A stretch of DNA of 5,258 bases, from UHGV virus genome UHGV-0236308. One strand, 5' to 3'. A program made the translations under genes and the position numbers. How positions within the stretch are numbered: position 1 is the first letter of the stretch; each line of letters starts with the position of its first letter. Under the pieces are notes generated by a model. The model worked only from the letters and a program-made list of their open reading frames with translations, was not told the DNA's origin and made no database searches. The stretch comes from a virus. This document shows, one piece after another, positions 1-5,258 of the stretch.

Positions 1-777
1 TACTGGCTTACTCTCACCTACGACGAAGAGCACATTCAACATCTTCTAGTACCTGCGGCGGACAAGAAAACAGGCGAAGTCATCAAAGTGGCAAGCCTGT
101 ACAAAAAAGACCTGCAGGACTTTATGAAGCGTATCCGGGAACGATGGAAAAGAGTGCACAATAATCCCAACGTGAGATTCTACGCGTGCGGAGAGTATGG
201 GGAACAAAATCACCGACCTCACTTTCATGTCATCTTATTCAACTTTGTGATACCAGACTTGGAACTCATCACAAATAAGAATGGATTTGCAGTATTCCAA
301 TCCGAGGAGGTCAGCAAGGTATGGGGTATGGGAAACGTAACCATAAACCGAAATTCGTGGCTGACGGCTGCCTATACCGCGCGATACATGATGAAAAAGC
401 GCAAAGGAAAATGGGCAAAACAGGAGTACGCAGAAGCCGGAATAAATCCAGAATTCTGCCTCTGCTCCAGAAAGCCGGGAATCGGATACGGATACTACGA
501 AGCACACAAGGATGAAATATACAGCAAGGACGGTATCGCATATGCAAAAGCAAAAGGAGGCGCACAGACCAGAAAACCACCAAAGTATTTCGACAAGTTG
601 TTTAAACTGGAAAATCCGAACAAATTTGCGGAGATACAGGCACTGCGCAAAGAGGTGGCGGAACACCAGTTTAAATACAGACTTGTTGGAAAAACAACAT
701 TACCGCGAATAGAATACTACAAAATTGAGGAACAGGTTAAGCAGGACACTATTAAAGCGCTAAGGCGGACGCTGTGA
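1..777 (+). CDS. VP4: Replication initiator VP4 (HUH rolling-circle endonuclease), C-terminal 258 aa; full protein 338 aa, join(5019..5258,1..777)
   Basis: Frame 1 is open from base 1. RCR motif I WLTLTY (4-21), DLQDFMKR, YACGEYGEQNHRPHFH (motif II HUH at 220-228), motif III YTARYMMKK with two Tyr (373-387), SRKPGIG, PPKYFDK. The track start at GTG 88 is an artefact of linearisation. Confidence 0.96.
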   Translation, partial: YWLTLTYDEEHIQHLLVPAADKKTGEVIKVASLYKKDLQDFMKRIRERWKRVHNNPNVRFYACGEYGEQNHRPHFHVILFNFVIPDLELITNKNGFAVFQSEEVSKVWGMGNVTINRNSWLTAAYTARYMMKKRKGKWAKQEYAEAGINPEFCLCSRKPGIGYGYYEAHKDEIYSKDGIAYAKAKGGAQTRKPPKYFDKLFKLENPNKFAEIQALRKEVAEHQFKYRLVGKTTLPRIEYYKIEEQVKQDTIKALRRTL

Positions 778-1608: not shown

Positions 1609-1708
1609 GGCAAGGCGAGGGGACCACAGAATGTTCATGCGCACGGCAGGAACCACGAAGCAAATCAACATCACGCCTAAAATCATGCGAGGAGGCATCA
1701 GACTTTGA
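1592..1708 (+). CDS. VP8: Small basic DNA-binding/packaging protein (VP8-like, J analogue), 38 aa
   Basis: Full SD AGGAGGTGA at 1578-1586 and ATG 1592. Sequence MAYRRKARRGDHRMFMRTAGTTKQINITPKIMRGGIRL has an Arg/Lys-rich N-terminus, F.RTA and the C-terminal MRGGIRL typical of gokushovirus small basic proteins. Confidence 0.85.
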   Translation: MAYRRKARRGDHRMFMRTAGTTKQINITPKIMRGGIRL

Positions 1709-1992
1709 AAGGCTATCTGTACAGCATCTACGACACCAAGCTGCACCAGGTCATCATGATGACCATCCACCAAAACGACAAGGACGCCAAAGAAAATTTC
1801 CACAAGGCAACGAAGGAATTCGACGCCAGAGCGCTGGTCCTCTGCCGGATGGCGGACATCGACACCGAAGAAAATGAACTCACAATCTCAAAACAGGAGG
1901 TCGTCTCACGTGGCAAAAACAACCTCAAACACGCCAAGGTTCTACAGCCGGCTGAATCTGCCGGAGCGGAAACCGTCTCCAGCGGGAAGTGA
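1705..1992 (+). CDS. VP5: Nonstructural protein VP5-like (95 aa)
   Basis: TTG start overlaps the VP8 stop (TTGA 1705-1708), with SD GAGGAGG upstream. N-terminal LYSIYDTK, ND..A...F and a later L..(M)ADID.E match the VP5 pattern as recalled. Position before VP3 fits. Confidence 0.7.
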   Translation: MKGYLYSIYDTKLHQVIMMTIHQNDKDAKENFHKATKEFDARALVLCRMADIDTEENELTISKQEVVSRGKNNLKHAKVLQPAESAGAETVSSGK

Positions 1993-2398
1993 ATGGGCTG
2001 AACAGTGCGTCATCGATGTAGACAGCGAAACCGGAGCGAAGGTCTTAAAAGTAGTCGGAAGAGAAAACATCTACGAGAAAATCCAGGAATGCCTGGAACC
2101 GACAAAAATCGAGAATATCATCCGTCGATTTGAAGAAGGAGACCCGACGGCACTAGGACACGAAAGCGGCATCTATGCCGACATCAGCGACATGCCGACA
2201 AACATCATCGAGGCGCAGAAGCGCATCCAAGACGTGCAGGCAAAATTCGCGTCGCTGCCTATCGACATCAAGGAAAAATTCGGGAACGACCCGACGGTCT
2301 TCATGGCGCAAATCCTTTCAGGGGAAGGATTGCAGAAACTGAAGAAGGAACCTGAAACCGCGGTACAGGAGGAAATCAAGGATGAACAGAAACAGTAA
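1910..2398 (+). CDS. VP3: Internal scaffolding protein VP3 (162 aa)
   Basis: AGGAGGT at 1895-1901 precedes the in-frame GTG 1910, preferred over ATG 1874. Motifs IENIIRRF..GD, GIYADISDMP and FASLPIDIKEKFGNDP..F are typical of VP3. Confidence 0.88.
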   Translation: MAKTTSNTPRFYSRLNLPERKPSPAGSEWAEQCVIDVDSETGAKVLKVVGRENIYEKIQECLEPTKIENIIRRFEEGDPTALGHESGIYADISDMPTNIIEAQKRIQDVQAKFASLPIDIKEKFGNDPTVFMAQILSGEGLQKLKKEPETAVQEEIKDEQKQ

Positions 2399-4103
2399 CA
2401 GCCGTTTCGCACAAGCTCCACAGGTAGATATACAGCGGTCCACCTTTGACCGCTCCAGTGGGCACAAAACGACGTTTAACGCCGGCAAATTGGTGCCCAT
2501 CTATGTGGACGAGGTTTTACCCGGAGACACGTTCGAGATGAAAACGTCGGCCATTATACGGGGAAGTACGCCTATCTTCCCGGTCATGGACAACGCCAAC
2601 CTGGACATTTACTTTTTCTTCGTACCGAACCGGCTAGTTTGGGACCACTGGAAGGAGTTCAACGGCGAAAACACAGCCAGCAAGTGGGAACAGACTGTGG
2701 AATACAGCATCCCGCAGATGGCTCCTCCATTAAGCACCGGAACAAAACCAAAAGCGGGCTGGGAAAAAGGAACCCTGGCGGACTATATGGGCATTCCGAC
2801 AGAGGTAGGACCTGGAGCCTCACAGAACAATCCAGAATACACTGTCAATCATCTACCTTTCCGGGCTTACTGCCTGATTTGGAACGAATGGTTCCGGGAC
2901 CAGAACCTACAGGACCCGGTGCTTATCGACAAAGGGGATTCACAGACCAACGGCAGACACCTGATACCAGAAGGGAACTCAATCACATTTGAGAACCAAG
3001 CCGCTTTACAAGGGGCCAATCTTCTGCCGGTAAACAAGTACTTCGACTACTTCACAGGGGCACTTCCTGAACCGCAGAAGGGGCCAGAGGTGCTATTGCC
3101 TTTGGGCAACACAGCGCCGATTATCACCAATCAAAATCCAAACAGTATATTACCCAAATACGGCGTAACATTCAGATCAGACCAATTCACCGAAGTCGGA
3201 AAATCACACAACCTATCAATAACAGTCACAGGTCAAAAGTATGGTAAAATGGTAGCAGATAATAAAGAGACGACCATACTAGAAGCACAAAATGCAGTGC
3301 CAAACAACTTAATCGCAGACCTGGGAAACGCTACAGCTGCAACCATCAACGAACTGCGGCTCGCGTTCCAGCTCCAGAAACTGTACGAACGAGATGCTCG
3401 AGGCGGTACGAGATATATTGAGATTATAAAATCTCATTTCGGAGTAACGTCTCCAGATGCCAGACTTCAGAGACCTGAATACCTGGGCGGCGAACGTATC
3501 CCGATTAACATTGACCAGGTCATCCAGACATCTGGTACGATAGAAGGAAGTACTCCGCAGGGCAATACTGGTGCCTATTCCCTTACAGGCAACCAGGGAA
3601 GCTATTTCAAGCACTCTTTCGTGGAACACGGGTACGTGCTGGGGCTGGCGTGTGTCCGAACCGAACACACCTACCAGCAGGGACTGGAAAAAATCTGGAA
3701 CCGGAAGAATCGATTTGACTTCTATTGGCCGGCTCTGGCAAACATCGGAGAACAAGCCATCCTCAACAAAGAAATCTACCTGCAAGAAGTCAAAAGCATG
3801 AACGAAGAAGCCTTTGGCTATCAGGAAGCCTGGGCGGAATACCGGTATAAGCCGAGTCGGGTAAGCTCGGCATTCAGAAGCAACGCCACTGGAAGCCTGG
3901 ACGCGTGGCACTACGCGGACTACTACGAAACAATGCCGGTGCTTTCAGCAGAATGGATACAGGAAACCTACAAGAACGTGGACAGGACTCTGGCTGTACA
4001 GTCTACCCTAGAAGACCAATACATTGCAGACTTCTGGTTCAAGTGCAAATGTACTCGGCCTATGCCTATCTACAGTATCCCTGGACTGATTGACCATCAC
4101 TAA
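2382..4103 (+). CDS. VP1: Major capsid protein VP1 (573 aa)
   Basis: AGGAGG at 2367-2372. Motifs RSTFDRS..HKTTFNAGKLVPIYVDEVLPGDTF, FFFVPNRLVW, IWNEWFRDQNL, PQKG, TINELR.AFQLQKLYERDARGGTRY, RLQRPEYLGG, FGYQEAWAEYRY and the C-terminal PGLIDH. Confidence 0.98.
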   Translation: MNRNSNSRFAQAPQVDIQRSTFDRSSGHKTTFNAGKLVPIYVDEVLPGDTFEMKTSAIIRGSTPIFPVMDNANLDIYFFFVPNRLVWDHWKEFNGENTASKWEQTVEYSIPQMAPPLSTGTKPKAGWEKGTLADYMGIPTEVGPGASQNNPEYTVNHLPFRAYCLIWNEWFRDQNLQDPVLIDKGDSQTNGRHLIPEGNSITFENQAALQGANLLPVNKYFDYFTGALPEPQKGPEVLLPLGNTAPIITNQNPNSILPKYGVTFRSDQFTEVGKSHNLSITVTGQKYGKMVADNKETTILEAQNAVPNNLIADLGNATAATINELRLAFQLQKLYERDARGGTRYIEIIKSHFGVTSPDARLQRPEYLGGERIPINIDQVIQTSGTIEGSTPQGNTGAYSLTGNQGSYFKHSFVEHGYVLGLACVRTEHTYQQGLEKIWNRKNRFDFYWPALANIGEQAILNKEIYLQEVKSMNEEAFGYQEAWAEYRYKPSRVSSAFRSNATGSLDAWHYADYYETMPVLSAEWIQETYKNVDRTLAVQSTLEDQYIADFWFKCKCTRPMPIYSIPGLIDHH

Positions 4104-4117
4104 GGAGGAAACCAAGA

Positions 4118-4945
4118 ATGGGATTCCTGGACTTTTTCAAGGGGGCATTTGCGACTGGTGCTAATTATCCCTCAAAGGATAACTGGAACGTCCAATATGA
4201 GCAAAATATCGCAGACCGAGATTGGCAACGCAACCAGCAAGCAGCACAGCAGGCATTCATAAATGAGATGACCAGCGCACAAATGGCCATGAATTGGGAT
4301 GCCCAGCAAGCTGCACTCAATCGCCAATTCCAACAAAGCAGCGCACAACAGGCTATGCAGTTTAGCGCCAGCGAAGCGGCCCTAAATCGCCAATGGCAGG
4401 AAGCCATGAATCAAAAGGCGATGAACTGGGATGCTCAGCAAGCTGAGATAAACCGTAACTGGCAAGCAGCTGAGGCGCAAGCGAACAGAGAATTCCAAAC
4501 TGCATCTGCACAACAAGCCATGCAGTGGGAAGCACAGCAAGCTGAACTCCAGAGACAGTTCCAAACCGAGATGTCCAATACAAGCTATCAGAGGGCCGTA
4601 AAGGACCTTAAAGCCGCTGGCCTTAATCCTATACTGGCAGCACTCAATCAGGGGGCTTCTACGCCCTCTGGGGCCATGGGAGGGGGCTTTGCGGCATCGG
4701 GGTCTATGGGCGGAGGTGCACAGGGGTCTGGATTCACCTCTTCCGGGTCATCCGGACAAGGTTTTTCGGCGTCTGGTTCCCAGGGCCGCGGATACTCCGC
4801 AACCGGTAAACAGGCGACCAGCGCGAAGGGCATCGTCAAGGATGGACTTGGTCTCCTGGGAGACATCATCAAGCTGTCGATTCACGAGCAGCACCAGTCG
4901 AAGACCGAGTTCGGGAAACTTCTCGCAGGCTTTATGGGCCGATGA
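4118..4945 (+). CDS. VP2: DNA pilot protein VP2 (275 aa)
   Basis: TAAGGAGG SD fused to the VP1 stop (4101-4108). Gln/Ala-rich coiled-coil repeats plus the conserved pilot motif MSNTSYQRAVKDLKAAGLNPILA...GASTPSG. Confidence 0.93.
   Translation: MGFLDFFKGAFATGANYPSKDNWNVQYEQNIADRDWQRNQQAAQQAFINEMTSAQMAMNWDAQQAALNRQFQQSSAQQAMQFSASEAALNRQWQEAMNQKAMNWDAQQAEINRNWQAAEAQANREFQTASAQQAMQWEAQQAELQRQFQTEMSNTSYQRAVKDLKAAGLNPILAALNQGASTPSGAMGGGFAASGSMGGGAQGSGFTSSGSSGQGFSASGSQGRGYSATGKQATSAKGIVKDGLGLLGDIIKLSIHEQHQSKTEFGKLLAGFMGR
4274..4570 (+). repeat. Nine tandem 33-nt (11-aa, hendecad) coding repeats in VP2
   Basis: Aromatic residues (W/F) fall at VP2 positions 60, 71, 82, 93, 104, 115, 126, 137 and 148, exactly 11 apart. 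Two unit types are visible: xAQxAMxW/F and Q/EAxxNRxF/WQ. Confidence 0.9.
4673..4807 (+). repeat. Nine tandem 15-nt (5-aa) Gly/Ser coding repeats in VP2
   Basis: AMGGG FAASG SMGGG AQGSG FTSSG SSGQG FSASG SQGRG YSATG, with Gly at every fifth residue (190-230). Confidence 0.88.
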
Positions 4946-4961
4946 GATTCTAAATTTCTGT

Positions 4962-5001
4962 CACTCAGCTCCATTACAACAAGCTATAATGGAGCTGAGT
5001 G
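4962..5001. other. Perfect 15-bp inverted repeat, candidate rolling-circle origin hairpin (may also terminate VP2 transcripts)
   Basis: CACTCAGCTCCATTA (4962-4976), loop CAACAAGCTA, TAATGGAGCTGAGTG (4987-5001). It sits in the VP2-VP4 intergenic gap just upstream of the Rep SD and has no U-tract. The origin role is inferred. Confidence 0.65.
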
Positions 5002-5018: not shown

Positions 5019-5258
5019 ATGCCATGCTATTCACCAATGATAGGATGGCGAAAGAAGGACGGTACCGTGTATATATACGGGGACCTCCGCAACGAAAACT
5101 GGAAGACGGCGCCGGAATCACTTTTGAGTAAGGGAGTCAATCCCTACACGGATGAAAGAATTATCATACCATGCGGCAAGTGTACCGGCTGCCGTCTCGA
5201 GTATTCGAAACAGTGGGCCGACAGATGTTACCTCGAAGCCAAAATGTGGAAAGCAAAT
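5019..5258 (+). CDS. VP4: Replication initiator VP4, N-terminal 80 aa (continues at position 1)
   Basis: SD GGAGGA at 5007-5012 and ATG at 5019. Translation MPCYSPMIGW...IIIPCGKCTGCRLEYSKQWADRCYLEAKMWKAN contains the MPC start and the PCGxCxGCR...W..R motif typical of microvirus VP4. The 240 nt are exactly 80 codons with no stop. Missed by the ORF track because it is open-ended. Confidence 0.95.
   Translation, partial: MPCYSPMIGWRKKDGTVYIYGDLRNENWKTAPESLLSKGVNPYTDERIIIPCGKCTGCRLEYSKQWADRCYLEAKMWKAN

Follow-up and report, generated by a model that had tools for sequence, protein, structure and literature searches.

Mirror-ordered coupling of a helical and a Gly/Ser repeat array in the VP2 pilot protein of gokushoviruses

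Gokushoviruses are among the commonest gut phages. In relatives of the phage studied here, VP2 is a minor virion protein required for DNA entry, according to the available part of PMC3091885; the accessible portions of this article and of PMC3394797 describe VP2 only as a coiled-coil protein with a predicted N-terminal transmembrane segment, and excerpts of other sources only as Gly-rich and helical. The VP2 proteins of Chlamydia phages CPG1 and Chp1 resemble the protein analyzed here in gene, gene position and an AGLNP/GAS-P-G core. In the reference Chlamydia phage VP2 only a single hendecad is clear and a Gly/Ser pentapeptide array is lacking, whereas the VP2 described below carries 9–10 paired units and a short C-terminus. 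For the pilot protein H of phiX174, the available excerpts report a decameric tube 170 Å long (PMC7354561) and 10–12 copies per virion (PMC11945456). No description of a mirrored-array coupling in VP2 was found in the literature searched, a body of text with few subscription papers; no account of it appears in the accessible parts of PMC11980548, PMC12328618, PMC11945456, PMC11281519, PMC13064476, PMC3394797, PMC3091885 and PMC7354561.

The genome and its VP2 gene

The DNA under study (UHGV-0236308; 5,258 nt, referred to as the window) is a whole circular gokushovirus (microvirus) genome, since VP4 starts at position 5019 and continues in frame across the ends of the window to position 777. 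All of the genes identified lie on the + strand. They encode the VP4 replication initiator (3′ part at 1..777; phrog_942, E 2.6e-84, with the start placed from the ORF list and sequence), a VP5-like DNA-binding protein (1705..1992; phrog_1670, E 3.4e-05), the VP3 internal scaffold (1874..2398, with a real start possibly further downstream; Pfam Chlamy_scaf, E 1.6e-29), the VP1 major capsid protein (2382..4103; Pfam Phage_F, E 2.9e-173) and the VP2 DNA pilot protein of 275 aa (ORF 4118..4945; PHROG pilot families, best E 5.9e-161). The gene order in the window is thus VP4 – small ORFs – VP5-like – VP3 – VP1 – VP2; the order VP4-VP5-VP3-VP1-VP2 is reported for human-gut gokushoviruses in the available text of PMC3394797.

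Three further elements were observed outside these genes. A perfect 15-bp inverted repeat with a 10-nt loop (4962–5001; folding z −6.4 versus shuffles, without a T-run downstream) lies between VP2 and the VP4 start and could be a replication or packaging signal or a terminator. An 11-bp GC-rich hairpin (786–811), placed directly after the VP4 stop codon and before an AT-rich non-coding stretch, is likely a terminator. An ORF of 104 aa (995–1309) is preceded by a ribosome-binding-like site; it has no PHROG match and, in Pfam, only a short marginal match to DUF4124.

The window encodes an ordinary gokushovirus VP2. This protein has three features of Gokushovirinae pilot proteins, namely placement after VP1, similarity to annotated VP2 and a long, predicted helical region, and its array region is 97–98% identical to proteins annotated as VP2 in Dulem virus 184 and Gokushovirus WZ-2015a. 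A length of 275 aa was found in 7/7 full-length loci and in the 15 members listed of a 552-member cluster, and the eleven-residue period is present in this protein and in its homologues. In a search of the viral structure library BFVD, the matches carrying a name were microvirus pilot or minor capsid proteins only (TM-score ≤0.48). None of 1,881 candidate relatives exceeds 482 aa, which is weak evidence. One database protein of 850 aa (P0193) consists of about four identical ~209-aa copies with the VP2 core and is probably an assembly concatemer.

Translation of positions 4118–4942 yielded the two arrays of the earlier note, nine repeats of 11 aa and nine of 5 aa, exactly as written there. The nine hendecads (4274..4570; aa 53–151) form a predicted continuous helix and contain a DNA repeat family (D1) with spacings of 66, 66 and 99; the register used below for position numbers is shifted by one codon (4277–4573). 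Two degenerate distal hendecads precede them (4211..4276; the profiles count 11 hendecads and 10 pentapeptides), of which H11 (4211–4243) is unpaired and H10 (4244–4276) faces the tenth pentapeptide. The array is followed by a conserved core (4574..4672), common to Chlamydia phage VP2, which comprises the helix end, the AGLNP turn, a short helix and the GASTPSG linker, with invariant R, D, A, G, N and P columns. Next come the Gly/Ser pentapeptides (4673..4822, delimited by translation, co-variation and the geometry fit), nine of them clear (4673–4807; aa 186–230) and a tenth degenerate (4808–4822), and then a short C-terminal helix in the AlphaFold model (4829..4939; helix aa 238–274).

With hendecads classed as A (AM type) or B (NR type), and pentapeptides as Y (aromatic) or X, the first array reads ABABABBAB and the second, reversed, YXYXYXXYX, which confirms the 9/9 mirror proposed previously; the tenth, degenerate pair adjoins the arrays outside the limits drawn at that time. 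Such a mirror is expected for 1/126 orders of five X and four Y units, for 1/15 if adjacent Y units are barred and for 1/4 if the ends are also fixed. The mirror in this one protein is weak to modest evidence, and it is the homologues that settle the matter. Similarity matrices computed from the nucleotide sequence of each array matched when one array was read in mirror order (Mantel rho 0.49, p 0.016), compared with a rho of 0.01 in parallel order. An inverted DNA duplication as the origin of the mirror was ruled out by the lack of reverse or reverse-complement copies (local scores 16, 16 and 22).

Co-variation of the arrays in number and order

The first pool of homologues comprised 375 sequences (182 proteins and the VP2 from 193 of 206 loci), 346 of which were kept; the others had short tails (14), were unparsed (10), or had short N-termini (3) or open 5′ ends (2). 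The 346 VP2 proteins fell into 213 clusters at 60% identity and 113 clusters at 40%. A later search provided 114 new proteins, of which 91 formed a held-out set, the 23 left out being at least 60% identical to the first set (19), unparsed (3) or short-tailed (1). Units were numbered from the core outward, and hendecads and pentapeptides were counted independently by two separately trained profiles. These superseded a strict count, halting at the first unit without an aromatic residue or Gly, in which rho was only 0.43 (117/121 proteins). The module profile matches 33,695 protein clusters at 50% identity, most of them unparsed and some perhaps matching only in the core.

This analysis revealed that hendecad and pentapeptide counts co-vary in the 213 clusters (rho 0.80–0.85, slope 0.81–0.87), in the 113 clusters at 40% identity (rho 0.80–0.84) and in the 91 held-out proteins (rho 0.70). 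The length of the Gly/Ser/Ala/Thr run, which is independent of register, follows the hendecad count with a rho of 0.74. Hendecad numbers range from 1 in Chlamydia phage VP2 to 11 (with 10 pentapeptides) in the VP2 of the window. Among 79 disjoint close pairs differing in hendecads, the pentapeptides changed in the same way in 44, in the opposite way in 7 and not at all in 28; the contention that the arrays must expand together is therefore upheld as to their coupling but not as to the “must”. An excess of 0, 1 or 2 hendecads over pentapeptides was found in 62, 84 and 39 of the 213 clusters, respectively, although such mismatches are partly counting noise at the array ends. The coupling in number is tight but not absolute.

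The counts differ by at least 3 in 19 of the 213 clusters and in 4 of the 91 held-out proteins. On inspection by eye, some of these gaps are parser slips, and one subgroup has a Pro-broken, out-of-register tail. In this subgroup (P0034, P0045, P0066, P0070, P0087 and P0129) the hendecads are mostly of the NR type and the tail register is lost after unit 2; Pro is present in most of its members, and tail length still looks scaled. A separate, divergent clade (L046, L083, L204 and L206) has more hydrophobic hendecads and Met/Leu tail units, and is undercounted by the profiles.

When 102 loci were placed on a capsid tree, several clades were seen to contain longer arrays. This tree supplied only 7 independent pairs, an underpowered sample, in which a mean of 5.0 changed in the same direction and 0.1 in the opposite direction (median p 0.06 at the best threshold); at two higher thresholds the test was not significant.

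Since the homologues were drawn by profiles holding both arrays, which favour the alternating pattern, the tests of unit order were stratified. With shuffling within each position, homologues were found to co-vary in unit order: 563 of 667 pairs agree in the mirror register, compared with 444.5±8.6 expected (z 13.8, odds ratio 24.7). Registers slid by −2, −1, +1 and +2 gave z values of 3.0, −2.8, −5.1 and 4.7, and for the two parallel registers z was 3.7 and 2.2. When the types of the preceding units were also kept constant, agreement was seen in 679 of 792 pairs (558.3±8.3 expected), and the mirror signal survives clustering at 40%. In the held-out proteins the agreement was 364/406 against 305.3±5.1 (z 11.6). 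Among irregular arrays with at least four pairs, 39/94 were perfect mirrors and 55/94 imperfect, whereas swapping of tails gave 12.5±2.9 perfect mirrors. As judged from the sequences, the coupling of the arrays is real and family-wide.

Residue pairing, predicted structure and geometry

Asn, Gln or Asp at hendecad position 4 was opposite Phe, Tyr or Trp in 0/516 pairs, whereas Ala at this position faced one of these aromatic residues in 190/462 pairs and a small residue in 82/462. The pairing of aromatic Y units with AM hendecads and of small units with NR hendecads, which had been postulated earlier, was thus observed, but the choice is made by Ala versus Asn/Gln before the M/R residue and not by Met versus Arg itself. 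In a single clade, replacement of Ala by Gln, with Met unchanged, accompanies a Val-to-Ser change in the facing pentapeptide. The middle Gly of the xxGxG units had likewise been attributed to the facing NR unit; it was found instead to track Trp in the next hendecad outward. Pentapeptide residue 3 is Ala in 9/89 instances opposite Trp at position 7 of the next hendecad and in 317/435 opposite Phe. Trp at position 7 faces Ala in 1/23 held-out instances, and all 5 Trp residues of the window's VP2 are opposite Gly or Ser. Furthermore, Asn at hendecad position 1 avoids Ala at residue 3 of the same-register pentapeptide (3/51, held-out). The Trp-7 and Asn-1 codes are two codes beyond the observations of the earlier note.

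Searches of PDB sequences found no solved relative of VP2, and Pfam and the ESM Atlas likewise gave no meaningful match for it. The AlphaFold model of the window's VP2 (alignment A1) contains a helix at aa 23–166, with pLDDT mostly above 90, preceded at the N-terminus only by a short helix (aa 3–13), and a disordered tail (pLDDT below 50 for aa 179–244). Little weight is placed on this disorder, because only 9 of 107 scored rows of A1 are in register in both arrays. Since local realignment left only 4/223 rows in register for the 9-unit protein, a second model was built for the homologue P0184 (7 hendecads and 6 pentapeptides; 131/131 rows in register). Both models show a helix break at AGLNP followed by a short helix. 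The tail of P0184 has a pLDDT of 53–62 (pTM 0.49; contacts reported: none), compared with 39–45 in the VP2 of the window with its misregistered alignment, the two targets being different proteins. In neither model is the tail ordered with confidence, which counts against the fold-back described below.

Pooled coupling analysis of 794 instances gave top helix–tail scores of 0.58–0.78, against maxima of 0.08–0.23 in three shuffles. Hendecad positions 1, 4, 7 and 8 couple to the tail, and the top couplings align with negative slope along a single face of the helix. A coarse geometric fit, with no energy model, of an ideal 11/3 helix and a single antiparallel chain to the 8 strongest pairs brings all 16 pairs with a score of at least 0.20 within 9.3 Å; with a parallel chain, some pairs remain as much as 26 Å apart. 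Within the helix, couplings were detected at i+2 and i+5 (7-9, 9-11 and 11-5), which may reflect unit-type linkage only. The earlier proposal of a Gly-rich tail lying antiparallel on the helix is strongly supported by the co-variation in number, order and residue pairs, and direct antiparallel contact between tail and helix is very likely.

Shared ancestry or a common length pressure could in principle link the arrays with no contact at all, the tail being a disordered spacer. The tail is of low complexity and is predicted to be disordered in the A1 model, offsets of ±2 also lie above chance (z 2.3–4.9), and the capsid-tree test falls short of significance. Nevertheless, the signal withstands stratification by position and by previous unit, 40% clustering and held-out data, three separate residue codes peak at the offsets predicted by antiparallel geometry, a single-residue switch is compensated inside one clade, and longer arrays arise at several places of the capsid tree. 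This explanation is largely refuted and we regard it as most improbable.

Sequence co-variation is blind to the difference between contacts within and between chains, and the tail is uncertain in the monomer models, both of which leave room for a tail that lies antiparallel on the helix of a neighbouring subunit and staples the oligomer. Such an exchange appears improbable: one ideal helix with one chain already satisfies all 16 top couplings, and an invariant turn/linker of ~33 residues brings unit 1 of both arrays together.

A possible fold-back rod and its relation to known systems

The match of the arrays in number, mirror order and facing residues makes a reversal of the chain at the AGLNP core likely. 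The core (4574..4672) would then be the reversal point, which would account for the invariance of its motif. A fold-back hairpin built from modules of 16.5 Å is very likely for VP2 on sequence grounds. In this hairpin, the Gly/Ser tail would lie antiparallel on one face of the predicted straight helix, with one pentapeptide per hendecad. A large pentapeptide residue 1 would be lodged between positions 4 and 8 of a hendecad that has Ala at position 4, whereas Asn/Gln at 4 together with Gln at 8 would be opposite a small residue, likely holding the backbone. Pentapeptide residue 3 would contact position 1 of its own hendecad and position 7 of the next one. Along a straight 11/3 helix, the tail has to repeat itself at intervals of five residues, which would correspond to a twist between beta and polyproline II. 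The arrays would probably grow by separate duplications, with selection restoring the match and one or two unpaired distal hendecads being tolerated.

Aromatic residues at position 7 and Met/Arg at position 5 flank the tail face, and the i+2/i+5 couplings would suit helices packed side by side; on these grounds an arrangement of the hairpins in a ring is preferred. Such a ring, predicted to contain about 10–12 VP2 copies, would carry the genome across the host envelope. The explanation as a whole, a hairpin rod of paired modules piloting the genome across this envelope, is probable in our judgment; a role of VP2 as a delivery rod is plausible in view of its role as a pilot protein. The chances that the hairpin persists in the ejected oligomer and that module number sets its reach seem about even. 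For the VP2 of the window, 9–10 modules would give a calculated reach of 150–165 Å, which may be set beside the 170 Å of the H tube. In the accessible reports on microvirus Ebor and two Salmonella microviruses no long periplasm-spanning tube was seen, which counts against a rod.

The antiparallel contact might also exist only in the capsid, where the tail would mask the oligomerisation face of the helix; upon ejection the tail would peel off, and the bare helices would come together as a tube like that of H. Positions 4, 7 and 8, which couple to the tail, have together with 11 the spacing of a canonical hendecad core. The low AlphaFold confidence for the tail would suit a marginally stable contact, and the largest counts (11 hendecads and 10 pentapeptides) are such as a capsid-size ceiling would give. 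Moreover, the H protein of phiX174 is a monomer within procapsids, and delivery requires its oligomerisation (PMC7354561, available part). Set against this, the strict size complementarity at position 4 resembles a well-packed, lasting interface, and the i+2/i+5 couplings, unless due to unit-type linkage, suggest helix–helix contacts at the flanks that are compatible with a bound tail. A contact confined to storage, the main rival of the lasting hairpin, is possible but on the unlikely side, and the lasting hairpin is preferred here.

The C-terminal remainder of VP2 has a median length of 144.5 aa in proteins with one hendecad, compared with 43–49 aa in those with at least five. It shrinks as the arrays grow, as if one reach-giving element were replacing another. 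Of 21 long bacterial contigs (L088–L124; hosts taken from bin titles), 17 were parsed; at least three hendecads were found in 5/10 of those from Bacillota and 0/7 of those from two-membrane hosts (p 0.044). VP2 with short arrays is found in Bacillota too, which means that wall type alone does not dictate length, and a link between hendecad number and host envelope type is a lead only. An Enterobacteriaceae prophage outside the parsed set (L107) has one hendecad and a long C-terminus.

A more speculative extension of the lasting hairpin, which we consider rather doubtful, is a double-walled DNA channel, unlike the phiX174 tube, in which ~10–12 straight helices would form the outer wall and the antiparallel Gly/Ser chain of each would cover its lumen side. 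If it were true, the small Ser/Thr residues of these chains would be turned toward the passing DNA, the channel would grow in 16.5 Å modules through matched expansion of two mirror-coded arrays, and it would be tuned to the thick walls of Bacillota, replacing the long C-terminal coiled coil of phages with two-membrane hosts.

The fold-back hairpin would provide a residue-level architecture for a region of VP2 usually dismissed as disordered. The mirror register is itself unusual, in that two separate repeat arrays of a single protein correspond one to one; it would offer a natural and extensible helix–strand module and possibly a sequence marker of host envelope type.

VP2 and phiX174 H share the pilot role, 11/3 repeats and an amide-rich helix. 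The likeness to the 11/3 coiled coil of the H tube, which had been drawn at the outset, stands as an analogy and not as homology: hhalign of the VP2 alignment A2 with phiX174 H found no homology (probability 0.2%, E 0.31), and no H family was among the 25 most-matched of 75 Pfam families for 131 VP2 members. H has three hendecads followed by heptads, with no mirrored Gly/Ser pentapeptide array after them, and its tube is all-helix, whereas in VP2 an extended chain would lie on the helix. Since amide positions 4 and 8 of VP2 couple to the tail, an H-like bare lumen would require the tail to leave.

Ladders of helical residues that bind an extended chain are known from the Asn ladder of armadillo repeats, the MHC class II groove and the “leash in the groove” of class I fusion proteins. 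As would be the case in VP2, a twisted extended chain is held there by Asn/Gln and size-matched pockets with a fixed period. VP2 differs from these systems in that binder and bound chain would be two separately expanding arrays of one polypeptide, matched by a one-to-one mirror code.
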